From Dehalococcoidales bacterium (GTDB lineage Bacteria > Chloroflexota > Dehalococcoidia > E44-bin15): a stretch of 38,066 nucleotides of DNA. Numbering within the stretch: the first letter of the stretch is position 1; every line of letters starts with the position of its first letter. Both the position numbers and the translations under genes were made by a program. The DNA lies in NCBI GenBank assembly GCA_030615555.1, contig JAUWZB010000001.1, positions 1-38,066 of the forward strand. The letters run 5' to 3'. Positions 5,799-30,803 of the stretch are shown in pieces. The notes under the pieces are model-generated. The model searched no databases, was not told where the DNA came from, and saw only the letters and a list, made by a program, of their open reading frames with translations.

Positions 5799-5817
5799 AC
5801 CAAAGGGGGTGAAGAAC

Positions 5818-6135: not shown

Positions 6136-6184
6136 GCCAATTAGCTACTAACTATAGTTACTAACTAGGAAGGACAATAGTAGG

Positions 6185-7848: not shown

Positions 7849-7857
7849 GAGGCTTCT

Positions 7858-14845: not shown

Positions 14846-16193
14846 AATCCTTGTTGTTGATGATGAAGCTGTTATGCGCGAATCGCTTCATGATTGGCTA
14901 AGCGATGCTGGCTACCAGGTGTTCACTGCGGAAAATGGCCCACAAGCCCTAGAGATTATCGAAAAAGAGAACCTTGGAATTGTCATCGCCGATCTGGTGA
15001 TGCCAGGGATGGACGGGATCGAGTTGATGAAGCAGGCCAGGGAGATCCTTCCCAACATCCAGGTGATCATCATTACCGCCTATGGAAGCATCCCCACCGC
15101 TATTGCTGCCATGAAGGAAGGAGCCTATGACTATATCGAGAAGCCCTTCTGCCCCGAGAGAGTGGAATCGCTGCTCGAGAGGTTGGTTGAGCATCAAGGG
15201 CTAATTGAGGAGAACCTTTCCCTGCGCCAGAGATTAGAGGATCGCTACCGCTTTGAGAATATCATCGCTAAAAGCCCTGAGATGCAGCGGGTGATTGAGG
15301 TGATCAAGGTCGTGGCCAGGAGCAACGCCACCGTATTAATCACGGGCGACAGCGGCACCGGAAAGGAGCTAGTGGCGCGAGCCATCCACTCCCAGAGCCA
15401 TCGCCGGGACAAGCCCTTTGTTGCCGTCAGCTGCGCTGCCTTGCCCGAGAGTCTCCTGGAGAGCGAGTTGTTCGGTCACGAGAAGGGTTCCTTCACCGGG
15501 GCTTATGCTCAAAAGAAGGGGAAATTCGAGTTCGCCAACCGGGGGACACTCTTCTTGGATGAGATCGGCGAGATGAGTGCCAACATTCAAGTCCATCTGT
15601 TGAGAGTCTTGGAAGAAAAGGCATTCACCAGGGTTGGTGGCAACGAGGAGATCAAGGTAGATGTGAGGATTATCTCAGCCACCAACAAGGACCTGAAAAA
15701 GGCAGTAGCCAGGGGGGAATTCCGGGAAGACCTTTATTACCGGCTCAATGTGGTTACCATCGACTTGCCTCCATTGAGGGAAAGAAGGGAGGACATTCCG
15801 CTCTTAGCTGAGCACTTCTTGAACAAATTTGCCCTAGAGAATCAGAAAGAGGTTGCCGGGTTCTCCCCCGAGGCGAGGGAGTTTCTGTTGCGTTATGACT
15901 GGCCAGGAAACGTCCGTGAGTTGGAAAACGCTATCGAAAGGGCGGTTATCCTGGCCAAAAATTCTTTAATTGAGGTTGCCGACCTACCTGACCAAAGCTG
16001 GTCGTTGGCCCGTTCGGCTTTGCAGGGGAAAAGCCTTAAAGAGATGGAGAAGAACCATATCCTGAATGTGCTCTCTGAAACTGGGGGGAATTATAGCCAA
16101 GCGGCCAGGATCTTGGGGATTAGCAGAATGACGCTCTATAATAAAGCGCGGGAGTATGGGTTAGATGTAAAGAAAATAGACAACGCTGGCTAA
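14829..16193 (+). CDS. sigma-54-dependent response regulator (NtrC family: REC, AAA+, Fis-type HTH)
   Basis: REC shows ILVVDDE...IADLVMPGMDG. The AAA+ domain shows Walker A GDSGTGKE, GSFTGA (a GAFTGA variant) and LFLDEIGE. The C-terminal HTH is NYSQAARILGISRMTLYNK. It overlaps the kinase gene by 17 nt. Confidence 0.9.
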   Translation: MKKRPKILVVDDEAVMRESLHDWLSDAGYQVFTAENGPQALEIIEKENLGIVIADLVMPGMDGIELMKQAREILPNIQVIIITAYGSIPTAIAAMKEGAYDYIEKPFCPERVESLLERLVEHQGLIEENLSLRQRLEDRYRFENIIAKSPEMQRVIEVIKVVARSNATVLITGDSGTGKELVARAIHSQSHRRDKPFVAVSCAALPESLLESELFGHEKGSFTGAYAQKKGKFEFANRGTLFLDEIGEMSANIQVHLLRVLEEKAFTRVGGNEEIKVDVRIISATNKDLKKAVARGEFREDLYYRLNVVTIDLPPLRERREDIPLLAEHFLNKFALENQKEVAGFSPEAREFLLRYDWPGNVRELENAIERAVILAKNSLIEVADLPDQSWSLARSALQGKSLKEMEKNHILNVLSETGGNYSQAARILGISRMTLYNKAREYGLDVKKIDNAG

Positions 16194-16254: not shown

Positions 16255-16287
16255 GGCTATCCAGAGGTTTCAGGGTAGTCTTTTTTT
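16255..16287 (+). terminator. intrinsic terminator after the ntrC-like gene
   Basis: The stem GGCTATCC / GGGTAGTC has 8 bp including two G-U pairs. It has a 10-nt loop and is followed by seven T. Confidence 0.5.
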
Positions 16288-16302
16288 GGCAGGAAAATTG
16301 CA
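16287..16302 (+). promoter_or_regulatory. sigma-54 (-24/-12) promoter TGGCAG-GAAAA-TTGCA
   Basis: It matches the consensus TGGCAC-N5-TTGCW at 10 of the 11 specified positions and has the exact GG-N10-GC spacing. It lies 84 nt upstream of the ATG at 16386 and directly downstream of a sigma-54 activator gene. Confidence 0.7.
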
Positions 16303-16385
16303 AGTTCATAGGGTGAAAGGAGATGATAGAAATGAGAGGACAACGAGTTGTGGCAACTAAGGAAAAAGAAAAGGAGGCCACAAAA

Positions 16386-17390
16386 ATGAAACCGGTGCTA
16401 ATCGTTGAGGATGAAGCCATCATGCGAGAGTCGCTCAGAGACTGGCTTAAGGATGAGGGCTACGAGGTAGAAACAGCCGAGCAAGGGGAAGAAGCTTTAC
16501 ACAGGATCGGTGAGGTGGACTTTGGTGTTGTGGTGCTCGACCTGAGATTGCCGGGAAAGGACGGGCTTGAGGTGTTGAAGGAGGCGATGGCACAAAGGCC
16601 ACAGCTCAAGGGGATCATCATTACCGCTTATCCATCGGTGGAGACAGCAGTGGAGGCGATGAAACTCGGGGCAGTTGATTACGTAGTTAAGCCCTTCGCC
16701 CCTGATGCTCTGGAAAAATTGATCCGGGAGACCCTTGGAGCTGTTCAGGTGGAGATAAGGCCTAAGACTGCTACTGAGGAGATAGTGGGAGCTCCCGCAG
16801 TTGAGGAGGCCAAGGTTGAGGAAGCCATAGCCATAACCGAGGAGGAAATCCCCACCCACCTCCAGCAAGGCAAGGATCACTTCAAGGCAGGCCGCTATGG
16901 GGAGGCAGTGAAGGAATTCGAGGCCATCCTCAACCTCGCCCCAGGGCACATCGAGACTCGGACTCTGATTCGAAAGGCGAAGGAAGAGCTGGCGAGGCCG
17001 AGGATTGAGGTGCCTGAAGGGGAGGCTGCTCTTGAGGAAGCGGTCAAGCCCAAGGAGTGTGTCTGGATGAAGCTGGGGGTGGTCTCCTATCGGCTTTGCA
17101 CCCAGGACTACGATTGCCTCAACTGCGAGTTTGACCAGATGATGCAAGAGCGGATGGCTAAGGGGGAGGCCCCGGAGATCGAAGAGGCTCTGGAGAGATT
17201 TAAGGAACTACCCGGCAACCAGAGGCTTTGTCGTTACGCTCTCAAGGGCGATGTCAACTACCGGCTTTGCACCAGCCTCTTTCAATGTGCCACATGTGAA
17301 TTTGGTCAAATGATGGACGATGCTCTCCAGCGAAAGCTGGATAAGCTAGCTACCCGACGGGAAGCATTACGCAAAAAGTCTCATCTTTAA
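16386..17390 (+). CDS. orphan receiver protein with a TPR-like segment and two C-terminal Cx12Cx5Cx2C modules
   Basis: REC shows VLIVEDE...VLDLRLPGKDG...KPF. A TPR-like segment is GKDHFKAGRYGEAVKEFEAILNLAPGH. The repeats are CVWMKLGVVSYRLCTQDYDCLNCEFDQMM and CRYALKGDVNYRLCTSLFQCATCEFGQMM. ATG 16386 with AAGGAGG 8 nt upstream is preferred. ATG 16323 and ATG 16332 are alternatives. Confidence 0.8.
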   Translation: MKPVLIVEDEAIMRESLRDWLKDEGYEVETAEQGEEALHRIGEVDFGVVVLDLRLPGKDGLEVLKEAMAQRPQLKGIIITAYPSVETAVEAMKLGAVDYVVKPFAPDALEKLIRETLGAVQVEIRPKTATEEIVGAPAVEEAKVEEAIAITEEEIPTHLQQGKDHFKAGRYGEAVKEFEAILNLAPGHIETRTLIRKAKEELARPRIEVPEGEAALEEAVKPKECVWMKLGVVSYRLCTQDYDCLNCEFDQMMQERMAKGEAPEIEEALERFKELPGNQRLCRYALKGDVNYRLCTSLFQCATCEFGQMMDDALQRKLDKLATRREALRKKSHL

Positions 17391-17479
17391 TTTGCTTTGC
17401 TAACTCTTGAGCACCATGGGAACCTATCCCATCATCTCCCAAGATCGGGTTCCCTATACCTAAAACAAGCTTTTTCACA

Positions 17480-18904
17480 TTAGCTCCTTAATCTCCGATA
17501 AATATTTCCCGCTGAATCGTAGACACTTATTTCCAAAGGCATCTGACCTAGGGAGTGTGTAGCGCAAGAGAGACATGGGTCATAGCAGCGAATAGCAACC
17601 TCAACCCGATTAAGTATCCCTTCAGTAACCTTGCCGGCTTTGATAAATTCCTTAGCTACCTCATAGACAGCGCGATTCATTGCTAAATTATTATGACCAG
17701 TAGCTACAATTAGGTTGACCTTGCGAATCATACCGCTTGTATCTATCCAATAATGGTGGAAAAGGGTTCCCCGAGGGGCTTCAACTACTCCCACCGCCTC
17801 TTCATTGAGCTTGGTGGAGGTGACCCATATTTCCGTGGAGCAGATGAGATCATCCTGCAGGAGTGACTTTATCCTTTCCGCGGCATGCAGTGCCTCGATC
17901 ATTCGGGCATAGTGGTAGTATAATGATCCTTCTACTACCCCCTTGCCCATCAGTTTCTTGAAGTTCTGAAACTCCTTATTGGCCAGGGGGGTGGCAATGC
18001 CATCGGCGATATTCAATCTGGCCAGCGGTCCCACGCGGTAAATGCCTGCGGGATAACCCTTCTTTTTATAATAGGGGAACTTGAGGTAAGACCAGTCCTC
18101 CACCTTTTCTTCAATGATGGAGAGGTAATCCTCGGGAGCAATCTTATCCTCCCGAATAATCCCTTTATCATCTTTCAATCTGAGCTTCCCATCATAAAGC
18201 TCCAGGTTGCCGTTATCATCGACTAGTCCGAGATAGCCAGTGGGAAAGTTGGCAAAGCGGGCAGACTCCTCGCTATGCTGGTCATAGTACCCCTTGATCA
18301 GGTCTATGGCGATTTGAACATCGGCGATCATCCCGTCTAGCTGTCCGAGGAATTCCTCGCGTTTCTCCGGGGAAAGGGCCTTATTCATCCCTCCCGGGAT
18401 GGCAGCATTGGGATGAACCCTCTTATCCCCAAGCTCCTCGATTATCTTCAGGCCAAAAGCGCGCAGTCCTACTCCCTTTTTGGCGAGCTCGGGGTTTTTC
18501 GCAATAACCCCCATAACGTTTCGGATGGCGGGGTCAGCATCCATGCCGAAGAGCAGATCAGGGCTGGCCAGATGAAAAAAGTGCAGCGAGTGAGACTGAA
18601 GATACTGGGCCATGTGCATTAACTGGCGCAGCATCTTTGCTGTAGGGGTCAGCTCCACCCCCAGGAGAGCATCCCCAGCCTTGGCTGAGGCGAGGTGGTG
18701 GCTTACAGGACAAATACCACAGATTCGGCTGGTGATGACCGGCATCTCCCAGAAAAGCCGCCCCTCGCAAAACTTCTCAAATCCCCGCACCTGGGTCACA
18801 TGAAACCTGGCCTGAGCTACATTTCCGCTATCGTCAAGATGAATAGTTACCTTTCCATGCCCCTCAAGGCGGGTAACTGGCTCAATTATGATTTTCCTGG
18901 TCAT
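17480..18904 (-). CDS. hoxH: [NiFe] hydrogenase large subunit, group 3 (Hox-like by context)
   Basis: RLEGHGKV, the N-terminal ligand pair [10 protein letters not shown] and the C-terminal pair DPCLSCATH are present. A 24-aa tail follows the His and is the expected substrate of a maturation endopeptidase. Confidence 0.9.
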
Positions 18905-18916
18905 TCAATAGCCTCC

Positions 18917-19456
18917 TCAATCAAACCTCATCATCTCGCTCGGGAGCACTGGAATTCTGCCCTCCAGAAGTTCGGTCAGGGCATAGTGAATAGCTTTAGA
19001 GCTAGGGGGGCACCCCGGAACATAACAATCAACTTTAACCACCTGGTTTACCGGCTTAACCTGCTCTAAGAGCTGGGGGAGGTCTTCTGAGGATGGGACT
19101 TTACCGTCTTTGGTGCTCTCGGTCTCAAGATAATATCTGCGAAAAACCTCTTCTTTGCTGAAAAGGTTGCGCATGGTGCATATCCCCCCAAAGCAAGCGC
19201 AATCGCCCCACACCATCAGTATTTTGCAGTTGGCACGCAATTCCTTGGCTACTTCTTCATCGTGGGTGTTGCCTATTGCCCCTTCAATAATCCCAACATC
19301 GACAGGTGAAAACTCTTTAATGTCGGTTATGGGACTGGCGGTGATTTCAATTGCATCTGCCAGACCGATAAGCGCCTCATCTAAATCCAGAAAAGACATA
19401 TGGCATCCAGCGCAACAGTCTAACCATGCTGTAGCGACCTTAACCTTTGCCACCAT
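18917..19456 (-). CDS. hoxY: [NiFe] hydrogenase small subunit (HoxY / NuoB-like, proximal cluster only)
   Basis: 179 aa. WLDCCAGCHMSF, GDCACFGG and VPGCPP supply the four-Cys set of the proximal [4Fe-4S] cluster. The short length is typical of group 3 small subunits. Confidence 0.85.
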   Translation of the reverse strand: MVAKVKVATAWLDCCAGCHMSFLDLDEALIGLADAIEITASPITDIKEFSPVDVGIIEGAIGNTHDEEVAKELRANCKILMVWGDCACFGGICTMRNLFSKEEVFRRYYLETESTKDGKVPSSEDLPQLLEQVKPVNQVVKVDCYVPGCPPSSKAIHYALTELLEGRIPVLPSEMMRFD

Positions 19457-19463
19457 TAACCTC

Positions 19464-21437
19464 CTAGCTTGGCCTTAATTCGTGCCCTAGCTTTTTGGAA
19501 AGCTCGATCAATATCTCCTGGTCCTGAAGCAGACCATCTTTGGGTTGAAGCACTCGTTTTAATTCGAGAAGGCGGCCATCCATGCTCATATATTTGCCTT
19601 CCCTCTCTGCCCAGATGGGAGAGGGCAGAACTACATCAGCTATGGCTGTAGCAGGTGAGTGATAGCTTGCGTGCACCACCAGGAAATCGATTCCTTTAAG
19701 CCAGTCCAATAGCTCCTCGTCCTCCTGTTCATCGCCAAGGAGAAGGTAGAGCCCTTTCAGCCCATCCCGCTTTATCTCTCCTGCCGCGAGACCCAGCTCC
19801 CAGCCACCGCGGCTATTGGCAGCGGGTTTGAGCGAGATGACCCTTAGCCTACCGCCCGCCTGATTTCCTGTTAAATCAGCCAAATTGAGCAGGGAGGTAA
19901 CAATGCTTGGATCGTTCCGCTGCACCAATCCTTCTCCGTAGATGATTACGCCACGCTTAGCTTGACCGTACATCTCTGCTGCCAACTCCAAGCTCTCCCT
20001 CTCTATGCCTGTGGCTCTGTTTACCTCGCCTGTCTTATACTGGCTCAGAGATTGGACAGGCTCTGCGGTTACCTTTTCCCGCGCGACCAGGCCCTTATCA
20101 ATAATGATCTTGGCTAGGCCATTAAGAAGAACCCCTTCACTACCTGCCACGGGTTTAAGCCAGAGGTCGGTCCACAGAGGGAAAACATCCTGCGATGAAT
20201 CTACCACTATCAACTTTGCTCCCTTTTGGCTTACTGCTCGCTGCACGAGAGTGCCAATGATGGGATGGGTCTTCTTGGGATCGGCCCCTGCTATAAGAAT
20301 GCAATCTGCATCTAGTATCTCTTCAATGGGGCACTCGATGTCCAATCCCTTTCCGCCATTTTGAAGCTGGCTAACACCCTCGGCGATTATCCGATAGCTC
20401 CTTCCGCCCAGGGTATCGATGGAATCGCTGCCGATCACCTCACGGATAAATTTATAAAACAAGGAAAGTGTTTCATTTGGGAGTCTTGCGGACATTATGC
20501 CAGCAAAGCCATCCTTTAACCCGCTCACTCTCCCGGCAATGACCTCCGCTGCCTTATCCCAAGTACATTCTTCAAGCTTGCCTTGCTTGCCTCGCACCAA
20601 GGGAGAGGTGACCCGGGGACGAGTTTCGAGAAGCAACTCAAAACGCCCCATGCTGCACAGTGGCCCTCTTAGCTCCGTTAACCTTGGCGCTTCAATCCTC
20701 ACGATGTTATTGTCTTTCACCAGTACATTCAGTTCACAGCCAACTCCGCAAGCAGAACAAACAGTCGTTATCTGCTGGCAGTCGCTTGTGCTACCCTTAT
20801 AAAGACTGAGCTTGCTGAAAATAGCACCTGTGGGACATGCCTGCACACAAGCACCGCAGGAGGTGCAGGATGATTCGCCCACTGGTTGCTCCAAGTCGGC
20901 AGACACCAGCGTTCTCCAGCCACGTCTACTGAAATCCAGAGTATAGTTTGCCGCTATCTCACTACACGCCCGAATGCACCTGCCACAAAGGATGCAACGG
21001 TTATGGTCAATCACCAGGTAATCACTTAATGGATCCACAGGCAAAGAGGGAAAGGTATAGGGGTAGCGCACATTGTCCATCTGATATCGGTAGGCCAGTT
21101 TTTGTAGCTCACAGTCTCCGCTCTGCTCGCAGAACATGCAGAAATGATTGCGCTCGGTGAAGATGAGTTCCAATATCTGGCGGCGATATTTCTCCAGCTC
21201 CTCAGTGTGGGTTTTCACCACCAGTCCATCCCTGGTGGGGTAGGTGCAGGAAGGAACTGGCCTCCTCTCCCCCTCGATCTCCACCACACACATTCGGCAG
21301 GCTCCCACGTCACTTAATCCCTCCAGGTGACAGAGCGTAGGCACATCGATGCCATTAGCCTGACAGATTTCAAGAACGGTATCCCCTTCCCTCCCTTTAA
21401 CTTGCTGATCATTGATTGTCAAAGTTATCTCTTTCAT
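19464..21437 (-). CDS. NuoG/HoxU-like Fe-S subunit carrying a degenerate, non-catalytic molybdopterin-oxidoreductase domain
   Basis: Motifs are the N-terminal [2Fe-2S] site (CHLEG..GACRMC..C), HFCMFCEQSGDCELQ, CILCGRCIRAC, CTSCGACVQACPTGA and CSACGVGCEL. At the FDH active-site position it reads IDTLGGRSY, where the paralog upstream has IDHCARLCH. The C-terminal dinucleotide-binding barrel appears to be missing. Confidence 0.8.
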   Translation of the reverse strand: MKEITLTINDQQVKGREGDTVLEICQANGIDVPTLCHLEGLSDVGACRMCVVEIEGERRPVPSCTYPTRDGLVVKTHTEELEKYRRQILELIFTERNHFCMFCEQSGDCELQKLAYRYQMDNVRYPYTFPSLPVDPLSDYLVIDHNRCILCGRCIRACSEIAANYTLDFSRRGWRTLVSADLEQPVGESSCTSCGACVQACPTGAIFSKLSLYKGSTSDCQQITTVCSACGVGCELNVLVKDNNIVRIEAPRLTELRGPLCSMGRFELLLETRPRVTSPLVRGKQGKLEECTWDKAAEVIAGRVSGLKDGFAGIMSARLPNETLSLFYKFIREVIGSDSIDTLGGRSYRIIAEGVSQLQNGGKGLDIECPIEEILDADCILIAGADPKKTHPIIGTLVQRAVSQKGAKLIVVDSSQDVFPLWTDLWLKPVAGSEGVLLNGLAKIIIDKGLVAREKVTAEPVQSLSQYKTGEVNRATGIERESLELAAEMYGQAKRGVIIYGEGLVQRNDPSIVTSLLNLADLTGNQAGGRLRVISLKPAANSRGGWELGLAAGEIKRDGLKGLYLLLGDEQEDEELLDWLKGIDFLVVHASYHSPATAIADVVLPSPIWAEREGKYMSMDGRLLELKRVLQPKDGLLQDQEILIELSKKLGHELRPS

Positions 21438-21452
21438 CGTGTTAACCCTCTC

Positions 21453-24128
21453 CTAATCTTCAACGGGAGGCGCCTTTTCTACCCTGACCGCGCACACCTT
21501 AAGCTCGGGGATCTTGGCTATGGGGTCAACGGCAGGGTTGGTGAGTATATTTGTTGGGCTCTCAGCAAAATGGAAGGTCATAGAGATCACACCTGGCGGT
21601 GAAACTGGCGTTATCTTCACTCTCGCTGTTACCTCTCCGCGGCGGGAGACCACTTTTACCCTCTGGCCATCGGCGATGCCAAGGGCTTTAGCATCCACCG
21701 GGTTCATCTCCACCAGCTCCTCACCCTTCAAAACATTGAGCCCCTTCACCCTTCTGGTCACAGTTCCGGTGTGGAAGTGATACAGGCTGCGCTCCGTGGT
21801 GAGGATCAGGGGGTAGTCATTATCGGTCTGCTCCAGCGATGGCTTATACTCCAGAGGCAAAAACCTCCCCTTCCCACGGGTGAATTGCTCGGTGTGCAGG
21901 ATGGGTGTTCCCGGATGCTCCTTAGTAGGGCATGGCCATTGTAGGCCACCATCATCCAGGCGCTCATAGGAGATGCCCCCATAGGAGGGGGTAAGCTCGG
22001 CGATCTCTGCCATGATCTGGGAGGGATGTTCGAAATCGAAGCCCTGGCCTCCGAGCCGCTTGGCAATCTGGCAGGTGATCCACCAATCGGGCTTTGAATC
22101 GCCCTTGGGCTCGAGGGCCCGGCGCACCCGCTGCACCCTCCGCTCAGTGTTGGTAAAGATGCCGTCCTTCTCGGCGAAGGTTGCGGCCGGGAGGACAACA
22201 TGGGCAAGCTGAGCCGTCTCGGAAAGGAAGACATCCTGAACCACAAGGAATTCCAACTTCTTTAGCGCCTCATCGATATGGGTGGCCTCGGGATCGCTTA
22301 ACATTGGATTCTCGCCAACAAGGTAGAGTGCCTTGACCTTTTTCTCATATGCCGCCTGGAAGATCTCGGTGAGCGTCAGCCCAGGGGATGTATTCAAGCT
22401 ACACTGCCAGGCAGTCTCAAATTTCTCTTCGACCTTTGGGTCGTCGACTCGCTGGTAGCCGGTATACACATTGGGCAACGCACCCATGTCGCAGGCACCC
22501 TGGACATTGTTCTGCCCCCTTAAGGGGTTTACCCCAGTAGACGGCTTGCCAATATTCCCGGTGAGCATCGCCAAGTTGGCAGTAGCTAGCACGTTGTCAG
22601 TGCCATGGGTATGCTGGGTAATTCCCATAGCATAAAGAATGGTGGCAGGCTTGTTGGTAGCGTATAATCGGGCGGCTTCAGCCACCTGTTCAGCGGGCAC
22701 CGCCGTGACCCGTTCCACAAAATCTAAATCAAAAGGCTCAAGGGACTGCTTAAAGGCATCGAAGTTCTCGCAGCGTTCCTCTATAAAGGAGGAGTCGGCC
22801 AGACCTGCGTCGATGATAACCCGCATCATGCCCATGAGTAAAGCTACATCGCTGCCGGGACGATGCCTAAGCCAGAGATGGCCGATACGGCAAAGGTCGA
22901 TCTCCCGCGGGTTGGCCACAATGAGTTTTGCCCCATCTCTCACTGCCTTTTTTATCTTGAGGCCGATCACGGGGTGGGTGGCGGTGGTATTTGTTCCGAT
23001 AGCCAGGATACAAGCAGCCCCACTGATCTCGTCAATTGAGTTGGTCATGGCGCCGCTGCCGAAGCTTTGAGCTAAGCCTGCAACGGTTGGGGCATGGCAG
23101 AGGCGGGCACAGTGGTCGATATTATTGGTAGCCAGCACCGCTCGGGCAAACTTCTGGATAAGGTAGTTCTCCTCATTGGTGCACTTTGCCGAGGAGATAA
23201 CTGCAACTTTGTCTCCCTTATACTCGGCTAATCTACCAGCAATAAAGCCCAGTGCCTCGTCCCAGGTTGCCTCTGAAAGCTTGCCATTTCGCCTAATTAA
23301 GGGTGAAGTCAGGCGCTCTGGGTGGTTAATAAACTCAAAGCCAAACTGACCCTTGACGCAGAGACTACCCTTGCTCACGGGACTCTCCAGATCACCCCTG
23401 ATCCCCACCACCTCGTTCCCGCGAACGGCTAAATATATACCGCAGCCAACGCCACAGTAAGGGCAGATTGTCTTGACCTCCTTTGCTGGCCACCTGAAGT
23501 CCTTTGGCATGAGCGCCCCTGTTGGGCACTTGGCAACACACTGTCCACAGGATTCGCACACCGACTCAACAATCGGCCTGTCATCGACAGTGACGATCTT
23601 GGATGACGGGCCATCATTGAATACCTCCAAGGCAGCAACGCCCTGTACTTCATCGCAAACTCGCACGCACTTACCGCAGAGGATGCACTTGCTAGAATCG
23701 CGGACAAAGAAGGGATTGCTGGAGTCGATGAGGGCTGGCCTTTCCAGCTTCTTGAAGCGCTGCTGATCGATGCCAACATAGGCTGCGATCCGTTGAAGCT
23801 CACAGTGCTGATTCTTGGGGCATGTCAAGCAGTTATCAGGGTGATCTGACAAAAGCAATTCAACAACGTGACGGCGCACTTCGTTAACACGCCTTGCCTC
23901 GGTACGAACCACCATTCCTTCAGCCACCGGAGTGGTGCAGGAAGCGGGCAACCCATCGACATTTTCGATCTCCACCAAGCATAGCCGGCAGCCCCCGTAA
24001 GGTTCCAGGTCGGGATCGCCGCAGAGGTTGGGGATATAGATGCCCGCATCCTGTGCTGTCTCGAGCACAGTCGCCCCTTCCCTTCCCTCCACCTTGGTGC
24101 CATCTATGGTTAGACTAACTTTGCCCAT
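21453..24128 (-). CDS. fdhA: formate dehydrogenase catalytic subunit, Cys type, with an N-terminal NuoG-like Fe-S domain
   Basis: 891 aa with [2Fe-2S] and multiple [4Fe-4S] motifs. The active-site block HCARLCHAPTVAGLAQSFGSGAMTNSIDEI aligns with E. coli FdhH ARVUHGPSVAGL..GNGAMSNAINEI, with Cys in place of Sec. The molybdopterin and C-terminal barrel regions are present. Confidence 0.9.
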   Translation of the reverse strand: MGKVSLTIDGTKVEGREGATVLETAQDAGIYIPNLCGDPDLEPYGGCRLCLVEIENVDGLPASCTTPVAEGMVVRTEARRVNEVRRHVVELLLSDHPDNCLTCPKNQHCELQRIAAYVGIDQQRFKKLERPALIDSSNPFFVRDSSKCILCGKCVRVCDEVQGVAALEVFNDGPSSKIVTVDDRPIVESVCESCGQCVAKCPTGALMPKDFRWPAKEVKTICPYCGVGCGIYLAVRGNEVVGIRGDLESPVSKGSLCVKGQFGFEFINHPERLTSPLIRRNGKLSEATWDEALGFIAGRLAEYKGDKVAVISSAKCTNEENYLIQKFARAVLATNNIDHCARLCHAPTVAGLAQSFGSGAMTNSIDEISGAACILAIGTNTTATHPVIGLKIKKAVRDGAKLIVANPREIDLCRIGHLWLRHRPGSDVALLMGMMRVIIDAGLADSSFIEERCENFDAFKQSLEPFDLDFVERVTAVPAEQVAEAARLYATNKPATILYAMGITQHTHGTDNVLATANLAMLTGNIGKPSTGVNPLRGQNNVQGACDMGALPNVYTGYQRVDDPKVEEKFETAWQCSLNTSPGLTLTEIFQAAYEKKVKALYLVGENPMLSDPEATHIDEALKKLEFLVVQDVFLSETAQLAHVVLPAATFAEKDGIFTNTERRVQRVRRALEPKGDSKPDWWITCQIAKRLGGQGFDFEHPSQIMAEIAELTPSYGGISYERLDDGGLQWPCPTKEHPGTPILHTEQFTRGKGRFLPLEYKPSLEQTDNDYPLILTTERSLYHFHTGTVTRRVKGLNVLKGEELVEMNPVDAKALGIADGQRVKVVSRRGEVTARVKITPVSPPGVISMTFHFAESPTNILTNPAVDPIAKIPELKVCAVRVEKAPPVED

Positions 24129-24147
24129 GTATTATCACCTCATTTAT

Positions 24148-26325
24148 TTAAGTCGGTGCACCGGCTCGAAGCGGACAAATGGTATGATAGGAGAGAGTCT
24201 TTTGGCAGATACCAGCCGGGCAGCGTCTATCAAGGATGTGTGCCTCAAAGTGGTCGCGGAAATGCTCTAGGGTGAACAGGACTATATCCGGGGCAGTTTT
24301 GCCAACGGGGCATTCCGAAGCCACTCTCATGGTGTCACCGAGCTCGAAGAGCAGATCGAGCATCTCGAGCTTGCCCCTGCCGGTGGCGATGTCATCCAGG
24401 AGGCTCACCATCTGGGCTATGCCCAAACGGCAGGGCGGGCATTTGGTGCAGGACTTGTTTTGGGCCGGAACAGTCATCGAGAAGCGGGCAAGCTCGACGG
24501 CGCAGACCGAGGTCTGTAGTTTAGTGACAAGGCGCTCAGGGACAAGCTCGGGGAGCGCTGCGCTGAGTGCCTCATAGCCGCCAGCATCATAGCCGGCGAC
24601 AGCCTCAAGACAAGGCAGGCACTTGTCCTCCAGGGCGTGATAAGCTACCAGCGCCTTACAAACCCCGGCAGGGCACCTTTTATCGATGATATGAGACTCA
24701 TACTCCTCCCGAAAATGGCGAAGGGTGGTTAGCACCGGATTGGGGGAGGTCTGACCCAGGCCGCATAGAGAAGCCGAGGCAACCATCTCCCCTAACTCTG
24801 CCAAGATATCGAGGTCCTCCATCGTCCCCTCACCCCGGCTGATCTTGGTCAGGATCGCCAGCATTGCGGGGATCCCAGCCCGGCAGGGTACACATTTACC
24901 GCAGGCCTCGTCCCTGGTGAAGCCGAGGAAGTATTTAGCCACATCCACCATGCAGCTATCCTCATCCATCACAACAAGCCCGCCAGAGCCCATAATAGCC
25001 CCGAGCGCAGTAACCGCTTCGTAATCGACCGGCACATCTATATGTTGAGCCGGGATAACACCCCCCGATGGCCCTCCTATCTGCACTGCCTTGTATTTCT
25101 TGCCATCGGGTATGCCACCGCCGATGTCGAAGACTATCTGTCCCAGTGGTGTCCCCAGGGGAACCTCGACCAGGCCAGTGTTGTTTATCTTGCCCACGAG
25201 GCACAGGGTTTTTGTGCCCTTGCTTCCCTCCGTGCCGACGCTTGCGAACCAATCAGCCCCCCGCACAATGATCTGCGGGACATCCGACCAGGTCTCTACG
25301 TTATTGAGGGTGGTCGGCTGGCCAAAAAGCCCCTTATTGGCTGGGAAGGGTGGCCTCTGCCTGGGATTTCCCCTCTTTCCTTCGATAGAGCCCAAGAGGG
25401 CTGTTTCCTCGCCACAGACAAAGGCTCCGGCACCGGGGAAGATGTCAAGGGAGAACTCGAAACCAGTGCCCAGGATGTTCTTGCCCAGAAAGCCATATTC
25501 CCGCGCCTGAGCTATGGCGTGGCTTAAGGTCTCGATGGCAAGGGGATATTCAGCCCGAATATAGGCATAGCCCTGGCGCACATTGCCTATGGCGTAGGCC
25601 CCGATTACCATACCTTCAATTATCGAATGGGGGTTGCCCTCAAGAACAGCCCGGTTCATGTAAGCACCTGGGTCACCCTCGTCCCCATTACAAACTACGT
25701 ATTTCTCCTCCCCTGGTGAGCTACGGACAAAGCCCCACTTTCTAGCTGTGGGGAAGCCTGCGCCTCCCCGCCCCCGCAATCCCGCCTTACCGACCTCCTC
25801 AATAACCTCCTCAGGCCTCATCCCGGTCAAAACCTTGGCCAGGGCTTGATAGCCATCTCTGGCAATATACTCCTCGATATTCGTCGGGTCGAGGTCCTGG
25901 TTATGCATTACCCTGATCTCTTGAAGCTTAAGCAAGGGGACAGCCTCATCCAGAGTCCATTCCCCAACCACCTTTCCCCCTACAAGGTGCTGCTCCACGA
26001 TCTGGGGAACCTTGTCCTCGGTGACATCGGTGTAAATCACCCTCTTCTGCCCTGGGGTGATAACCGTGACCACCGGCTCCACACCGCACAATCCGATGCA
26101 GGCTGCCCTGAGTATAACGACATCGGATAGCTTGCGGGCTTCAACCTCCCGGAGAAAGGCTTCCAGGACCTTATTTGCCCCTGAAGAAATGCCACATGTC
26201 CCCAGGTGAACCTTAACCTGGATCTTCTCTCCTCGTTCCGCCAGCTTCCTTCGAGCTTGCTCCCTCAAATTCTGCAGCTCTTCTACAGACGCAAGTGGCT
26301 TCACTTCACACTCTTCCTTATTCAT
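24148..26325 (-). CDS. hoxF: NuoF/HoxF-like NAD(P)H-FMN subunit with an N-terminal thioredoxin-like [2Fe-2S] domain and a duplicated C-terminal [4Fe-4S] module
   Basis: Motifs are GRGGAGFPTARKW, CNGDEGDPGAYMNR and CGKCVPCR...LCGLG. N-terminal motifs are HLGTCGISSG...AACIGLCGVEP. A second CTKCPPCR...ECPVGK module lies C-terminal. It overlaps the upstream nuoE-like gene by 8 nt. Confidence 0.9.
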   Translation of the reverse strand: MNKEECEVKPLASVEELQNLREQARRKLAERGEKIQVKVHLGTCGISSGANKVLEAFLREVEARKLSDVVILRAACIGLCGVEPVVTVITPGQKRVIYTDVTEDKVPQIVEQHLVGGKVVGEWTLDEAVPLLKLQEIRVMHNQDLDPTNIEEYIARDGYQALAKVLTGMRPEEVIEEVGKAGLRGRGGAGFPTARKWGFVRSSPGEEKYVVCNGDEGDPGAYMNRAVLEGNPHSIIEGMVIGAYAIGNVRQGYAYIRAEYPLAIETLSHAIAQAREYGFLGKNILGTGFEFSLDIFPGAGAFVCGEETALLGSIEGKRGNPRQRPPFPANKGLFGQPTTLNNVETWSDVPQIIVRGADWFASVGTEGSKGTKTLCLVGKINNTGLVEVPLGTPLGQIVFDIGGGIPDGKKYKAVQIGGPSGGVIPAQHIDVPVDYEAVTALGAIMGSGGLVVMDEDSCMVDVAKYFLGFTRDEACGKCVPCRAGIPAMLAILTKISRGEGTMEDLDILAELGEMVASASLCGLGQTSPNPVLTTLRHFREEYESHIIDKRCPAGVCKALVAYHALEDKCLPCLEAVAGYDAGGYEALSAALPELVPERLVTKLQTSVCAVELARFSMTVPAQNKSCTKCPPCRLGIAQMVSLLDDIATGRGKLEMLDLLFELGDTMRVASECPVGKTAPDIVLFTLEHFRDHFEAHILDRRCPAGICQKTLSYHTICPLRAGAPT

Positions 26326-26830
26326 AGGGACTAAGGATGTCTTTTATCTCGCCGGGCTTGACCTTCCTATGGACATCATCCCCGATAGCCATTACCGGGG
26401 ATAGCCCACAACAGCCCAGGCAGCGGACAGTTTCCAGGGAGAATTTACCGTCTGGGGTGATGCCCTCAGGTTCAAGGCCAGAGTCTTTCTTCAAGGTATC
26501 GAGGAGCCTCTGACCTCCCTTAACATAGCAACTGGTGCCCAGGCAAATCTGGATGACATGCCTGCCCTTGGGCACCATGGTGAAGAAGTGATAGAAACTG
26601 ACTATTCCATATAGTTCGCTCAGGGGGATCTTTAAGTCCCTGGAGATGGTTTTTAGCACCGGTGGTGGCAGGTAGCCAATTAGCCCCTGTGCCTGTTGCA
26701 ACACCCGAATGAGAGTGCCAGCTTGTCCCCCCGTATCGTCGATTACCCTCTGGATTTGTCTGAAAATCCTCCCCGCATACCCAGCGCCAATCTCTTCTCT
26801 TGCTGGCGCCTCAGTCTCAATTCTTTCCAT
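26318..26830 (-). CDS. hoxE: NuoE/HoxE-like [2Fe-2S] subunit
   Basis: 170 aa with ICLGTSCYVKGG...VRCLGCCGLSPVM, the classic NuoE four-Cys pattern. RBS AAGAGGAGG. Confidence 0.9.
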   Translation of the reverse strand: MERIETEAPAREEIGAGYAGRIFRQIQRVIDDTGGQAGTLIRVLQQAQGLIGYLPPPVLKTISRDLKIPLSELYGIVSFYHFFTMVPKGRHVIQICLGTSCYVKGGQRLLDTLKKDSGLEPEGITPDGKFSLETVRCLGCCGLSPVMAIGDDVHRKVKPGEIKDILSPYE

Positions 26831-26986
26831 CCGTGGCCTCCTCTTTAGAAATAGCTATCGGTCCAATTGGCTAAGCCGATCCTTCGGGATGCAGTATAAC
26901 CACAAGGGGGCATGTGTAGCAACCTAGTATCCTGCCCCGACCACGCATGCCAGTGAATGGCACCGCATGACTCAGACTCAGGGTTA

Positions 26987-27412
26987 CTAGCTAGCTCCAG
27001 ACTTTTCCTTCTCCACTAGCTGCTCTATTGCTCTGAGAGAGGTATCGATGCCCTTGCCAAAGAGCTTTATCTGTATCGGCTTACCACCACCCCACCTTTT
27101 GTAAACCCGGCACACTTGGCAAATGCTGGTGTCGTCGCCTCTTGCCCCGTAATCGTCAAGCTTGCAGTAGGTCCCCTCTATCTCCCAGCAGGGCAAAGAT
27201 TGGTACTTGGGCGCGGGACACTCATTCCTGATCATCTCCGGGCATTGGCACATCTCCCAGCAGGGTCTCTTGCCTTCCCAGAAACCCCCGCTCGGTTCAA
27301 GCGGGATCTTCCCCTTTACTTCTGCGATGATCCTCTCTATCTCGGCGATGTCCTCTACACTCGTAACCCCCTTAAGAACCTCTTCCACTTGTTCAACCAC
27401 TTTCGACTTCAT
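26987..27412 (-). CDS. small 8-Cys protein that resembles what I recall as the two-CW domain
   Basis: 141 aa. The Cys-rich stretch is PCWEMCQCPEMIRNECPAPKYQSLPCWEIEGTYCKLDD...ICQVCRVYKRW. RBS GGAGGAAGGAGG. It is the first gene of the hox/fdh operon. Confidence 0.55.
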   Translation of the reverse strand: MKSKVVEQVEEVLKGVTSVEDIAEIERIIAEVKGKIPLEPSGGFWEGKRPCWEMCQCPEMIRNECPAPKYQSLPCWEIEGTYCKLDDYGARGDDTSICQVCRVYKRWGGGKPIQIKLFGKGIDTSLRAIEQLVEKEKSGAS

Positions 27413-27565: not shown

Positions 27566-27701
27566 TTGCTTAAACGCAAGCAGCCCCGCACTGGCTAAGC
27601 CTTTATAACTAGGTATTTCCACCATAGAGGTTGCCCTTACAGAGGCGCTGCAAGTTGAAGATATGAGTAGGATGGACTACAATTGTAATGGGAGGCACGT
27701 T

Positions 27702-28367
27702 ATGGGAAGAATCAGGATCCTGCTCGTCGAAGATCATGTAGTAGTACGACAAGGTACTCGCCAACTTCTGGAGCGTGAGCACGACCTAGAGGTCGTCGGC
27801 GAGGCTGGCGATGGCGAGGAGGCGGTGCATTTGGCGAGCCAGCTTAAGCCTGATGTGGTCATCATGGATGTCGCCATGCCTAAACTCAGTGGCATCGAAG
27901 CTACCAGGCAGGTCAAGGAACTATTGCCCTCAGCTATAGTGCTCGTTCTCACCAGCTATGATTATGATGAGTATATTTTCAGCCTGCTGGAAGCAGGCGC
28001 CGCTGGCTATCTACTGAAGGATGTGAGCGGCGATGAGCTGATTGATGCAATCCGAGCAGTCTACACCGGAGAACCGGTGCTTCACCCGATAGTCGTTCGT
28101 AAGTTGATGACCCGCTTTAAATCCCAGGCTGCCACAACTGCTGGGGCCCGCCCCCAGGAGCTTCTAAGCCAACGCGAGCTGGAAGTGCTCAAGCTGGCAG
28201 CGAGGGGTATGAGTAACAAGGACATCGGCGAGGCGCTTTTCATCAGTGTGCGCACGGTTCAGGCCCACCTGAGGAGCATCTTTAATAAGCTGGGAGTGGG
28301 CTCCCGCTCTGAGGCAGTATTGTATGTGCTGAAAAGGGGTTGGTTTACCCTGGAAGACCTCCCTTGA
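27702..28367 (+). CDS. response regulator RR2, NarL/LuxR family
   Basis: It is roughly two-thirds identical to RR1 by eye (IRILLVEDHVVVRQGTRQLL...VVIMDVAMPKLSGIEAT...LSQRELEVLKLAARGMSNKDIGEAL). ATG 27702 with GGGAGG 6 nt upstream is preferred over ATG 27663. Confidence 0.9.
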   Translation: MGRIRILLVEDHVVVRQGTRQLLEREHDLEVVGEAGDGEEAVHLASQLKPDVVIMDVAMPKLSGIEATRQVKELLPSAIVLVLTSYDYDEYIFSLLEAGAAGYLLKDVSGDELIDAIRAVYTGEPVLHPIVVRKLMTRFKSQAATTAGARPQELLSQRELEVLKLAARGMSNKDIGEALFISVRTVQAHLRSIFNKLGVGSRSEAVLYVLKRGWFTLEDLP

Positions 28368-28394: not shown

Positions 28395-30803
28395 ATGAAA
28401 ATCCTGCGAAGTCGCCATTTCTGGCTGATCCTGATCGTGTTTGTGCTTTGCAGTCTCCTGCACTATGTTGAGCAGATAGGCATCGGGAGCACGACACCTC
28501 CTAGCCTCCACTTTGGCCTGACGCGACATGCCTTGGAGCGCATCCTTTTTTTGCTGCCCATAATCTATGCTAGCTTTGTCTTCGGGCTAACTGCGGGGTT
28601 GGCTACCTCCTTTGCTGCCTTGGTCGTTATGTTGCCCAGGGCGCTCCTCATCTCGCCTGTTCCTGCAGATGCCTCTCTTGAGACAGGCGGCGTCGTTGTG
28701 GTAGGTACACTTGCTACTCTGTGGCTTTGGACACGAGCCAACGAGAGAGAAAAATTCCGAGCAGCATTAGCGGAACTGGAGTCAGCGCACCAGTTGCTCC
28801 AGTACCATGTTCGGTCTGCGCGGAATAATGAAAAGCGGCTGACTATGCTTAATGCTATCTCTACCGTGCTCACCGAGTCTTTGGAGCTTGAGAATGTCCT
28901 ACACAGGGCCACTCATATGGTCATGGAGCTAATGGACGTAGAGGTCACCCTGATATTTTCTCTGGATGAGGAAACCCAGGAACTGGTGCTTGTTGCCTAC
29001 GAAGGTGTCTCCGATGAATTCGCCCGGGCCGTGGACAGGATGAAGGTCGGCGAAGGCTTTAATGGGGAAGTGGCCAAGACGGGCCAACCCATGGTAGTGG
29101 AAGATACCTCCCGTGACCCTAGGCTAACCAGGCCTGAGGTTAAGAAAATGAAAATCCAAAGCCAGCTCATTTTACCCCTGACTCTTAGAGACCGCGTTAC
29201 GGGCACGCTTTGTGTGGCTATGCGCCGCCCCAAGCAATTTCTTCCCGAAGAAATAGAGCTGCTTAGTGCTGTCGCTACCCAGATAGGCACCGCTATTGAG
29301 AATGCACATCTTTATGAGAAGGAGCGTCTCACGGCACAAAGATTGGCTGTGTCAGAGAGGAACTATCGGGAGCTATTTGAGAACGCCACTGATGCCATCT
29401 GGGTTCACGATCTTACCGGTAATATTATCGCCGCCAATAAGGCTGCTGAAAAACTCACCGGGTATAGCGTAGCAGAACTGACCAAAATGAACGTAAGGGC
29501 TTTTCTGTCGGATGAAGACCTTGATGTAGCCGGACAGACCCGGCGCAAGTTGCTCGAGAAGGAACCCATGGAACAACCCTATGAGCAGCGCCTGATCAGG
29601 AAAGACGGGACAAAGGCGCTTCTAAAGTTGGCCACCAGTTTAATTACAGAGGAGGGGAAGCCCACTGGCTTCCAGCATATAGCGAGGGATGTCACCAAGG
29701 AAAGGCAGGCGGAGGAGGCGCTGAAGGAGAGGGAGAGAGAGCTTTCGCAGATAGTTGAGGGAAGCTCAGTGCCAACCTTTGTAATCAACAATGAGCACAC
29801 CATCACCCACTGGAACAAAGCTTGTGAGAATCTGACCGGTGTTTCTGCAGGTGAAGTGGTTGGCACCAAAAGACAGTGGTTGGCTTTCTATTCTGAAGAA
29901 AGACCGGTCATGGCTGACCTCGTAGTGGATAAGGTGTCAGAGGAGGAAATCGCCGGGCTTTACCGCAGCAAATATGGAAAATCCGCTCTTATTGAGGGAG
30001 CATACGAGGCCGAGGATTTCTTCCCCCATCTCGGGGAGAGAGGGAAATGGCTTTTCTTTACTGCAGCACCATTGAGAGACCATGAGGGAAAGGTCTTTGG
30101 AGCGATAGAAACGTTGCAGGATGTCACCGAGACGAGGAGGATGCAGGACAACCTGCGCTATTATCTCCAGGAGATTACTAGGGCCCAGGAAGAAGAACGC
30201 AAGCGCATTGCCCGAGAGCTTCATGATGATACTGCTCAGGCTCTTTATGCCCTTAACCGCGAGGCGGACAATTTCCTTCGAAGTAATCCAAATCTGCCAG
30301 CAGACAATGCTGCGTTCTTAAGGGACTTGAACAAACAGATTAGGGAGGTCTTACAGGAGGTACGGCGCTTCGGTCAAGACCTAAGGCCACCCATGCTGGA
30401 TGATTTAGGATTTTTGGCAGCACTGCGCTGGTTGGTGGGTGAGCTCAAAGAACAATACGGGATAGAGGCAGATGTAACAGTGTCTGGCATTGAGCGACGC
30501 TTCTCGGCAGAGACAGAGCTAACAATTTTCCGCATAGTCCAGGAGGCACTAAGAAATGTCGAGAAGCATGCTCAGGCCTCAAAAGTGGAGGTTGTGATAG
30601 AATTTGGCGAAGGTAAAACGAGGGTATCTATTTGCGACAATGGTAAAGGGTTTGATTTGGGAGGAAGTTTGGCCGAGCTACCTCGCGTGGGCAAGCTCGG
30701 GCTCGCTGGAATGGAGGAGAGGGCGCGGCTACTCGGGGGCAACCTAAGACTACAATCGGAGCTAGGCAAAGGGACAGCAGTAGAAGTAGAAGTACCAGTT
30801 TGA
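28395..30803 (+). CDS. sensor histidine kinase HK2 (membrane region, GAF, two PAS, HisKA_3-type H-box, HATPase_c)
   Basis: 802 aa. The H-box is ELHDDTAQ and the C-terminus carries DNGKGFDLGGSLAELPRVGKLGLAGMEERARLLGG. It is a paralog of HK1 with an additional PAS-like segment. Confidence 0.9.
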   Translation: MKILRSRHFWLILIVFVLCSLLHYVEQIGIGSTTPPSLHFGLTRHALERILFLLPIIYASFVFGLTAGLATSFAALVVMLPRALLISPVPADASLETGGVVVVGTLATLWLWTRANEREKFRAALAELESAHQLLQYHVRSARNNEKRLTMLNAISTVLTESLELENVLHRATHMVMELMDVEVTLIFSLDEETQELVLVAYEGVSDEFARAVDRMKVGEGFNGEVAKTGQPMVVEDTSRDPRLTRPEVKKMKIQSQLILPLTLRDRVTGTLCVAMRRPKQFLPEEIELLSAVATQIGTAIENAHLYEKERLTAQRLAVSERNYRELFENATDAIWVHDLTGNIIAANKAAEKLTGYSVAELTKMNVRAFLSDEDLDVAGQTRRKLLEKEPMEQPYEQRLIRKDGTKALLKLATSLITEEGKPTGFQHIARDVTKERQAEEALKERERELSQIVEGSSVPTFVINNEHTITHWNKACENLTGVSAGEVVGTKRQWLAFYSEERPVMADLVVDKVSEEEIAGLYRSKYGKSALIEGAYEAEDFFPHLGERGKWLFFTAAPLRDHEGKVFGAIETLQDVTETRRMQDNLRYYLQEITRAQEEERKRIARELHDDTAQALYALNREADNFLRSNPNLPADNAAFLRDLNKQIREVLQEVRRFGQDLRPPMLDDLGFLAALRWLVGELKEQYGIEADVTVSGIERRFSAETELTIFRIVQEALRNVEKHAQASKVEVVIEFGEGKTRVSICDNGKGFDLGGSLAELPRVGKLGLAGMEERARLLGGNLRLQSELGKGTAVEVEVPV
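30640..30741 (+). repeat. direct repeat copy B (inside the HK2 3' end), 100/102 nt identical to 1531-1632
   Basis: Manual alignment. The two copies are in the same orientation and 29,109 nt apart. Confidence 0.85.

Follow-up and report, generated by a model that had tools for sequence, protein, structure and literature searches.

The closest described relatives of the operon reported here belong to the Bfu family, in which two combinations are already known: the [NiFe] hydrogenase NiFe-HydABCSL of Acetomicrobium mobile (PDB 7t2r/7t30; Feng et al. 2022, PMC8880783), and an enzyme of Clostridium autoethanogenum that joins a formate dehydrogenase (FDH) to an [FeFe] hydrogenase. The flavoprotein HydB of A. 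mobile ends in a ferredoxin-like domain that has two [4Fe-4S] clusters and reduces ferredoxin; this B3/B4 domain is the exit of low-potential electrons to ferredoxin (PMC8880783; PMC12018979). Schut et al. (2022, PMC9304861) defined the family by the ferredoxin-like C-terminal domain of BfuB, in a survey that excluded metagenomes. We analysed a 38,066-nucleotide stretch of a Dehalococcoidales genome (assembly GCA_030615555.1, contig JAUWZB010000001.1, positions 1 to 38,066; hereafter the window), which carries the gene series hydC-hydB-fdhA-hydA-hydS-hydL. In place of the ferredoxin-like domain, its HydB has a duplicate of its own B1/B2 module (module 2), and fdhA, encoding an FDH, lies between hydB and hydA. 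Because the survey of Schut et al. required a ferredoxin-type domain and left out metagenomes, it would miss this duplicated form. The best explanation overall, which we put forward tentatively and at somewhat less than an even chance, is that the predicted proteins form one soluble complex on a Bfu flavin core, with FdhA in the place of ferredoxin.

According to the summary in PMC9304861, the C. autoethanogenum enzyme, Hyt/Fdh (FdhFeFe-Bfu; Wang et al. 2013), interconverts H2/CO2 and formate and uses a pyridine nucleotide. As summarised there, it resembles the window in combining a Bfu-type flavin core with both an FDH and a hydrogenase, but its hydrogenase is of the [FeFe] type, ferredoxin is a substrate and its BfuA has clusters A1, A2 and A4 only, whereas the window encodes a [NiFe] hydrogenase, a full-length BfuA and no ferredoxin domain. 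An earlier sequence-only reading of the window had named the hydrogen-dependent CO2 reductase (HDCR) as the known counterpart; Hyt/Fdh, a flavin-based FDH with an [FeFe] hydrogenase, is nearer (PMC9304861). HDCR joins FdhF to the [FeFe] hydrogenase HydA2 through HycB-type subunits and has no flavin, whereas the window has the flavoprotein HydB. Pfam and NCBIfam calls found no HycB-like gene in the operon and no [FeFe] hydrogenase subunit either, the only Fe_hyd_lg_C domain in the window belonging to a histidine kinase.

The NAD-dependent FDH FdsABG(D) of Rhodobacter capsulatus (6tg9) has an alpha subunit, FdsA, that matches FdhA end to end with the same Cys-His and Arg motifs and that docks on the NuoF/NuoE-like FdsB/FdsG. 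We found no dedicated fdsB/fdsG pair, fdsC, fdsD or fdhD-like gene among the window open reading frames (ORFs), and module 2 resembles Bfu HydB, not FdsB. Formate hydrogenlyase, which contains a group 4 [NiFe] hydrogenase, has membrane-integral subunits and a group 4 large subunit, whereas no hydrophobic segment or membrane domain was found in the proteins of the operon and its large subunit HydL groups with group 3 enzymes in a PDB search. In the methanogen Hdr-Vhu-Fdh supercomplex, which Costa et al. are said to have described in 2010, a [NiFe] hydrogenase and an FDH are reportedly alternative inputs to a bifurcating flavoenzyme. The core of that complex is HdrA (FAD) and not a NuoF-type FMN protein, and its partners and organisms differ from those of the window. 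Our PDB searches also returned 9t1s, which lists a [NiFe] large subunit and an FdhA chain.

Operon layout and gene calls

The sequence-only reading had described seven minus-strand genes, whose coordinates and spacings the ORF listing reproduced exactly. Its gene content was also right, as Pfam and NCBIfam calls identified the parts in order, and a hydropathy and motif check found no transmembrane segment and no Tat signal, in agreement with its view that no membrane subunits are encoded. We named the genes hydC, hydB, hydA, hydS and hydL because the large proteins are closest to NiFe-HydABCSL of A. mobile. The features, in the order of the genes, are:

26987-27412, minus strand: p141, small 8-Cys protein with two CW motifs, conserved hypothetical (141 aa; ORF listing)
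26318-26830, minus strand: hydC (BfuC/NuoE-like), [2Fe-2S] cluster C1 (170 aa; PF01257, 152 bits)
24148-26325, minus strand: hydB (BfuB/NuoF-like flavoprotein; 725 aa; PF01512, PF10589)
24166-24510, minus strand: module 2 of HydB, residues ~606-720 (second PF10589 stretch and internal alignment)
21453-24128, minus strand: fdhA, FdsA-type formate dehydrogenase alpha subunit (891 aa; TIGR01591, 858 bits against a cut-off of 666)
19464-21437, minus strand: hydA (BfuA), NuoG-like connector (657 aa; 7t2r_A)
18917-19456, minus strand: hydS, [NiFe] small subunit, short form (179 aa; PF01058, 100 bits)
17480-18904, minus strand: hydL, [NiFe] large subunit (474 aa; PF00374, 7t2r_D)

From p141 to hydL, the genes are separated by 156 nt, an 8-nt overlap, and then 19, 15, 7 and 12 nt. 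The seven ORFs are all intact, and none of their metal-binding motifs is missing. A scan of the window found no terminator-like site in the gaps from hydC to hydL, and thus none that would split fdhA from the hydrogenase genes, while promoter-like matches within the operon were at chance level. The sequence-only reading had proposed a search for the same synteny in other genomes, and the order hydC-hydB-fdhA-hydA-hydS-hydL is found again in approximately 25 independent loci from genomes and metagenomes, with identities of 55-88%. This is not a chance arrangement.

The HydB flavoprotein and its second module

HydB aligned with HydB of A. mobile (7t2r_B) over residues 37-572 (696 bits, 6e-208), and this core comprises the FMN/NAD(H) site, the B1 [4Fe-4S] cluster and the ligands of the B2 site. 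The B2 ligands C438, H525, C531 and C536 (A. mobile numbering) all align, and the semi-conserved C476 is Ser in the window. An N-terminal 2Fe-2S-type domain, the putative counterpart of the thioredoxin-like [2Fe-2S] domain (B5), was matched by NF041612 (41 bits) and, below the cut-off, by PF01257 (20 bits). In this domain His40 (26206-26208) occupies the position of the first Cys ligand in A. mobile HydB; as reported for an archaeal NfnB, His may act as a ligand here or the site may contain zinc.

Similarity to A. mobile HydB extends no further than the first CxxC of the C-terminal ferredoxin-like domain (B3/B4, IPR017896), and past residue 572 we found no Fer4 match and no CxxCxxCxxxC motif. 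PF10589 matches two stretches of HydB. The second of these, module 2, is another copy of HydB's own [4Fe-4S] four-helix domain (CxxCxxC...C) together with a B2-type Cys/His/CxxxxC site, here Cys/His/CPAGxC. It is joined by a linker of approximately 45 residues that retains a CxxC (Cys569, Cys572). The duplication was seen by internal alignment of copy 1 with copy 2 in both the window and locus L019, and across 22 aligned relatives, which are 53-80% identical to the window in this region, neither the linker CxxC nor any metal ligand of module 2 (among them Cys626, 629, 632 and 672) varies. Because module 2 matched Bfu-type HydB modules best in the PDB, with up to 100 bits, and FdsB with far less (36-39 bits), it derives from a Bfu flavoprotein. 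The same comparison ruled out module 2 as a remnant of the FDH's own NuoF-like subunit. The sequence-only reading had overlooked both the loss of the ferredoxin-like domain and the duplicated cluster module, which likely alter the mechanism that the sequence suggests.

The module-2 form of HydB is rare and narrow. In a library of 1.84 billion representative proteins, only one full-length representative strongly matched module 2, and a word-indexed protein search with module 2 matched almost only gene fragments. Two other matches were noted. Protein P0137 (2827 aa) has 15 separate stretches that match the module-2 query, the best being to the linker part (query residues 3-53). In locus L111, positions 8001-8357 hold a stand-alone 118-aa ORF consisting of the NADH_4Fe-4S module only, 69% identical to module 2 of the window, which adjoins a transposase fragment and a pyruvate:ferredoxin-oxidoreductase/Bfu gene cluster.

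Association of module 2 with fdhA

We fetched 80 genome loci with HydL and scanned metagenomes with the linker plus module 2 as the query. The closest genomes were Dehalococcoidia metagenome-assembled genomes with HydL 73-76% identical. HydB took several forms among the 80 loci: fused to a GltD-type FAD/NAD(P)H domain of approximately 440 aa in most close relatives (such as L002), with the canonical ferredoxin-like domain in Verrucomicrobia, and as a short HoxF-like flavoprotein in loci where no long HydA was found. The duplicated module occurred in L019 only, which was also the sole locus with fdhA between hydB and hydA.

The metagenome scan returned 26 loci, and fdhA lay directly after hydB in all 19 of those with both module 2 and downstream DNA; the whole operon is visible in L081, L086, L089 and L099. 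Protein look-ups added further examples, some of which (L107-L110 and L112) have the divergent LuxR-type regulator and GAF-PAS kinase of the window. Overall, fdhA follows module 2 in 25 of 27 loci, and the remaining two contigs end first. L113, which has a module-2 C-terminus, fdhA and hydrogenase genes at a contig end, is outside the 27 loci counted. Of approximately 55 relatives whose HydB ends in a GltD-type or ferredoxin-like domain or has no C-terminal domain, none carries fdhA between hydB and hydA.

In a Mantel test on 14 non-redundant operons, module 2 was correlated with the N-terminal domain of FdhA (r=0.79, p=0.0004) but not with the HydB core of its own polypeptide (r=0.16, p=0.16). 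Module 2 and fdhA thus behave as one unit that has been exchanged with the GltD domain right after CPAxxC. The HydB core of the window is 90% identical to that of L002, a GltD type, but only 76-88% to the cores of other duplicated-type loci; for HydA, identity to L002 is 80%. The duplicated and GltD core types interleave in a neighbour-joining tree, which carries no support values. The pattern is what a functional adaptor-plus-enzyme pair would show, though linkage alone could give it.

The sister Dehalococcoidia HydB-GltD operons (L002) share p141 and hydC with the window, and their HydA, HydS and HydL are 75-89% identical, but they have the GltD-type domain after CPAxxC and neither module 2 nor fdhA. 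The fusion in L002 (4371-7457) and approximately 30 other loci totals approximately 1030 aa, and its junction is the module 2 site of the window. The literature searched gave no description of this HydB-GltD fusion, in which a [NiFe] Bfu-like hydrogenase has an NADPH module of its own. Another arrangement was seen in L103 (2531-4350), where a HydB core 85% identical to the window ends approximately 19 residues past the core segment (window residues 141-560) with no added C-terminal domain, and hydA is directly next. Within the window, the HydB core and a maturation protease remnant are closest to L002, and module 2, FdhA, HydA, HydS and HydL are closest to L081. Such a mosaic operon suggests recombination within the operon.

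The formate dehydrogenase and hydrogenase subunits

FdhA aligned over its full length with 6tg9_A (812 bits, 4.8e-243) and 9wxb_B (9e-245). Its NuoG-like N-terminus, with one 2Fe-2S and four 4Fe-4S sites, is followed by a Mo/W-bis(pyranopterin guanine dinucleotide) (bisPGD) domain. The Cys-His active site that the sequence-only reading assigned to fdhA is present (Cys344-His345 in CARLCH), as is Arg537 (NPLRGQNN), and both are absent from the paralog. With all catalytic residues in place, FdhA looks competent. The Cys-His motif is kept in 17 of the 18 relatives examined; L095 gave no match. Split fdhA calls in L107 and L108 raised the suspicion of a selenocysteine FdhA, but CARLCH is encoded in both, and the interruption comes from the assembly. 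FdsA-type subunits need a NuoF/NuoE partner (Radon 2020, as cited in PMC8880783), and the operon has only one NuoE/NuoF pair.

For the large proteins, chains D, A and B of NiFe-HydABCSL were the best matches among solved structures. HydL matched 7t2r_D over its full length (591 bits, 1.7e-176), ahead of HoxH of Hydrogenophilus (5xf9_D, 457 bits) and MvhA (5odc_F, 427 bits), and by these matches the large subunit, which the sequence-only reading had left to be classified, groups with group 3 enzymes. Both nickel-binding motifs, L1 (residue 60) and L2 (DPCLSCATH, residue 442), are present. An exact-sequence look-up of HydL returned no record. HydS carries one proximal [4Fe-4S] cluster and is 41-89% conserved in relatives. 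HydC is a separate subunit with four Cys ligands for cluster C1 (Cys96, 101, 137 and 141).

HydA aligned with 7t2r_A over residues 1-654 (436 bits, 1.3e-129) and has five Fe-S sites (five Cys motifs) and a molybdopterin-like domain without cofactor. With FdhA it shares 35.5% identity and the N-terminal Cys spacing, but not the catalytic Cys-His, the Arg motif or the C-terminal cap (molybdopterin-dinucleotide domain). What the sequence-only reading described as a degenerate connector is the normal full-length HydA of the Bfu family, which links HydS/HydL to HydB, and not HoxU.

The same reading had framed the hydrogenase as a Hox or HoxEFU type. Hox group 3d enzymes (HoxEFUYH; 5xf9) are likewise soluble NAD-linked [NiFe] hydrogenases with NuoE/F/G-like partners, HydL shares 52-56% identity with the large subunits of the Hox-type loci L051-L080, and its homologs carry the Pfam HoxH family. 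However, those loci, which we labelled Hox-type for having a short HoxF-like flavoprotein and no long HydA, encode a flavoprotein of approximately 550-580 aa with no added C-terminal domain, whereas the window has a HydA of 657 aa and the B2 ligands. With NiFe-HydABCSL the window shares a separate HydC, the B2-site ligands, a long cofactor-less HydA and a short HydS, besides the high scores of HydL, HydA and the HydB core; it differs in the duplicated B1/B2 module and in fdhA. By sequence, then, the enzyme is a relative of the Bfu-type NiFe-HydABCSL and not a HoxEFU/HoxYH set, and the B2-site ligands, HydC and apparently the N-terminal 2Fe-2S-type domain, with His40 at its first Cys position, are Bfu-specific features that the predicted proteins have kept.

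Proposed mechanism and alternative explanations

The idea of one soluble flavin-based enzyme for formate or CO2 and H2, which the sequence-only reading put forward within its Hox-type frame, is supported without that frame by the constant position of fdhA between hydB and hydA and by the co-varying module 2. The products of hydC-hydB-fdhA-hydA-hydS-hydL probably form a single physical complex. H2 would be turned over at HydL, and electrons would travel by way of HydS and five HydA clusters to B1 and the FMN of HydB, where NAD(P)(H) would bind. We propose that this H2 arm is retained because HydA and the HydB core differ little from those of relatives with a single B1 site, as parsimony would have it. 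The N-terminus of FdhA would dock on the tethered module 2 in place of the B3/B4 domain. NuoG-like N-termini dock on, and exchange electrons with, a domain of the module-2 type in complex I, FdsABG and HydABC (PMC8880783). Because module 2 is a domain of this type and sits at the former ferredoxin exit, it is the candidate docking site, although we regard the chances for and against docking there as evenly balanced.

In such a complex the CO2/formate couple (approximately -430 mV) would occupy the low-potential branch that is normally ferredoxin's. The reaction would be 2 H2 + NAD(P)+ + CO2 <-> NAD(P)H + formate, the reverse being formate and NAD(P)H driving H2 evolution. A bifurcating or confurcating mechanism, rather than a plain hub, is possible but somewhat doubtful on the present comparison. 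The most specific version would be a ferredoxin-independent Bfu member with FdhA hard-wired to the low-potential exit, in which H2 reduces NAD(P)+ and CO2 and, in reverse, formate and NAD(P)H are confurcated to H2; as a whole we consider it unlikely.

Several points weigh against a complex with FdhA in the place of ferredoxin. The standard potentials of H2 and formate are nearly equal, so that thermodynamics does not demand bifurcation. Module 2 and fdhA are neighbours on the DNA, and recombinational co-transfer alone could account for their association as well as for the Mantel result. The docking site of FdhA could be B1, or a second copy of HydBC, rather than module 2. The B2 site may hold zinc and not an Fe-S cluster (PMC8880783, PMC12018979), which makes an electron route from module 2 to the flavin doubtful. 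Finally, the maturation protease gene is truncated, and the window has no hyp, fdhD or molybdopterin genes.

One alternative is a plain electron hub, in which FdhA and HydA-HydSL share the FMN/Fe-S pool of one non-bifurcating complex. This would be a bifunctional NAD(P)-linked formate dehydrogenase/hydrogenase that can also serve, in soluble form, as a formate-hydrogen lyase or reduce CO2 with H2, and is essentially the model of the sequence-only reading. Given the near-equal standard potentials of H2 and formate, which are established values, coupling is not needed, the ferredoxin-binding B3/B4 domain that the known Bfu reaction needs is absent, and the gene-level evidence is the same as for the complex proposed above. 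However, the B2-site ligands, a separate HydC and apparently the N-terminal domain have been kept under strong constraint, while the non-bifurcating HoxF and FdsB are without these Bfu-specific features (PMC8880783), and module 2 was inserted at the low-potential exit, away from B1. We judge the hub to be rather unlikely.

It may also be that the operon encodes two enzymes, with HydBC joining either FdhA, as an FdsABG-like NAD(P)-dependent FDH, or HydA-HydSL, as a hydrogenase. Co-transcription would then mean only co-regulation, and any link between H2 and formate would run by way of the NAD(P)H pool. FdhA is homologous to FdsA along its whole length, FdhA and HydA have the same N-terminal cluster layout so that both could bind the B1 site, and Sewell et al. 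(2017, PMC5736913) took a two-subunit FdhAB in an incomplete single-cell genome of a deep-sea Chloroflexi as an NAD(P)-dependent FDH. This arrangement gives no role to an invariant module 2 that is seen only with fdhA and replaces the C-terminal domain, and fdhA is inserted within the hydrogenase gene order, not appended to it; we consider it distinctly improbable. That this genome has a hydrogenase part which no longer works or is being lost, so that only the FDH or diaphorase part matters, is very improbable: there is a 42-codon endopeptidase remnant after hydL and the window has no hyp genes, but all seven ORFs are intact with complete metal-binding motifs, most same-operon relatives also have no nearby protease gene yet keep conserved hydS and hydL, and L110 has hypA next door. 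Accessory genes may sit elsewhere in the genome.

Operon borders and neighbouring genes

The features at the borders of the operon are:

17350-17478, minus strand: maturation endopeptidase gene remnant, 42 codons (tblastn against the intact L002 gene)
26893-26922, minus strand: promoter-like site TTGCTA-18-TATACT ahead of hydC, in the 156-nt gap
26907-26938, minus strand: weak terminator-like hairpin after p141, overlapping the promoter-like site
27663-28367, plus strand: LuxR-type response regulator (Pfam), divergent from the operon
28395-30803, plus strand: GAF-PAS histidine kinase (Pfam), divergent from the operon

The p141 protein has no Pfam match and a weak match, below the cut-off, to NF045718 (two-CW). 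Its family comprises 489 clusters, all unnamed and from Chloroflexota wherever a source is named. Cys51, 57, 65, 75, 98 and 101 are invariant, and an AF2 model was of low confidence (pLDDT 61.5, pTM 0.40). Relatives carry the gene upstream of hydC whether or not they have fdhA. Some have tandem copies of it (L081, 3834-4662; L097, 1258-1989), and L107 has an extra copy on the opposite strand downstream of hydL (19783-20046).

The hairpin between p141 and hydC has a free energy (dG) of -11.3 kcal/mol in the window and -23 to -36 kcal/mol, with T-rich tails, in L081, L089, L097 and L110. The fold of the whole 156-nt gap is no better than that of shuffled sequences (z = -0.83), and a terminator after p141 is thus read mostly from the relatives. 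Because of these hairpins and the promoter-like site before hydC, p141 is probably a separate transcription unit. The single seven-gene operon of the sequence-only reading would therefore hold from hydC to hydL, where no internal terminator was found, but probably not for p141. An Rfam search of the window gave no match.

The endopeptidase remnant starts 2 nt past the hydL stop and ends where a convergent response-regulator gene ends. Over residues 1-33 it shares 73% identity with the intact gene (154 aa) found after hydL in L002. GltD-type relatives have the gene in intact form, and most duplicated-type relatives lack it; in L110, the hypA gene adjoins the operon.

The LuxR-type regulator and GAF-PAS kinase pair is in the same position in L107-L110, and the two are likely candidates for regulators of the operon. 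On the plus strand upstream of the convergent gene is a histidine kinase (12896-14845) whose N-terminal [FeFe]-hydrogenase-like domain keeps the H-cluster Cys motifs; to judge from this domain, it may sense H2. It is preceded by a Sigma54_DBD protein (11766-12893, plus strand) and followed by a sigma-54 activator (14829-16193, plus strand). We suspected from this nearby activator that the operon is under sigma-54 control, but found no sigma-54 promoter upstream of it. The only good -24/-12 type site, TGGCAGGAAAATTGCA (16287-16302), lies 21 nt ahead of the response-regulator (RR-TPR) gene that converges on hydL (16323-17390, plus strand) and serves that gene. A heterodisulfide-reductase-like cluster (5445-11181, plus strand) encodes two small AsnC-ligand-domain proteins, an HdrC-like protein and an HdrB-like (CCG) protein. 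The same cluster encodes a 1107-aa protein that combines an FAD/NAD(P) oxidoreductase with GltD-type Fer4_20 and ferredoxin domains.

Implications

The literature searched yielded no account of a [NiFe] Bfu enzyme that includes FdhA, nor of a duplicated HydB module. Prior description of the synteny, which the sequence-only reading had allowed for, thus did not come to light. Sewell et al. (2017, PMC5736913) reported an FdhAB pair in an incomplete single-cell genome of a deep-sea Chloroflexi, which may be the same HydB/FdhA pair glimpsed in part.

Bfu enzymes are widespread among anaerobes, and how they bifurcate electrons is still debated. The exchange of module 2, a putative docking module for a two-electron enzyme, and the GltD domain at one junction offers a comparative system for the low-potential branch. 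Only in the most specific version above, which we consider unlikely, would the complex be a CO2 reductase or formate-hydrogen lyase of the [NiFe], flavin-based and bifurcating kind, with an exit cassette that is naturally interchangeable with a GltD-type NADPH module. A [NiFe] flavin-linked H2:CO2 reductase would be relevant to formate-based hydrogen storage. For uncultured sediment Dehalococcoidia, the enzyme would provide a soluble route between H2, formate or CO2, and NAD(P)H, which are currencies of syntrophy and of the Wood-Ljungdahl pathway.

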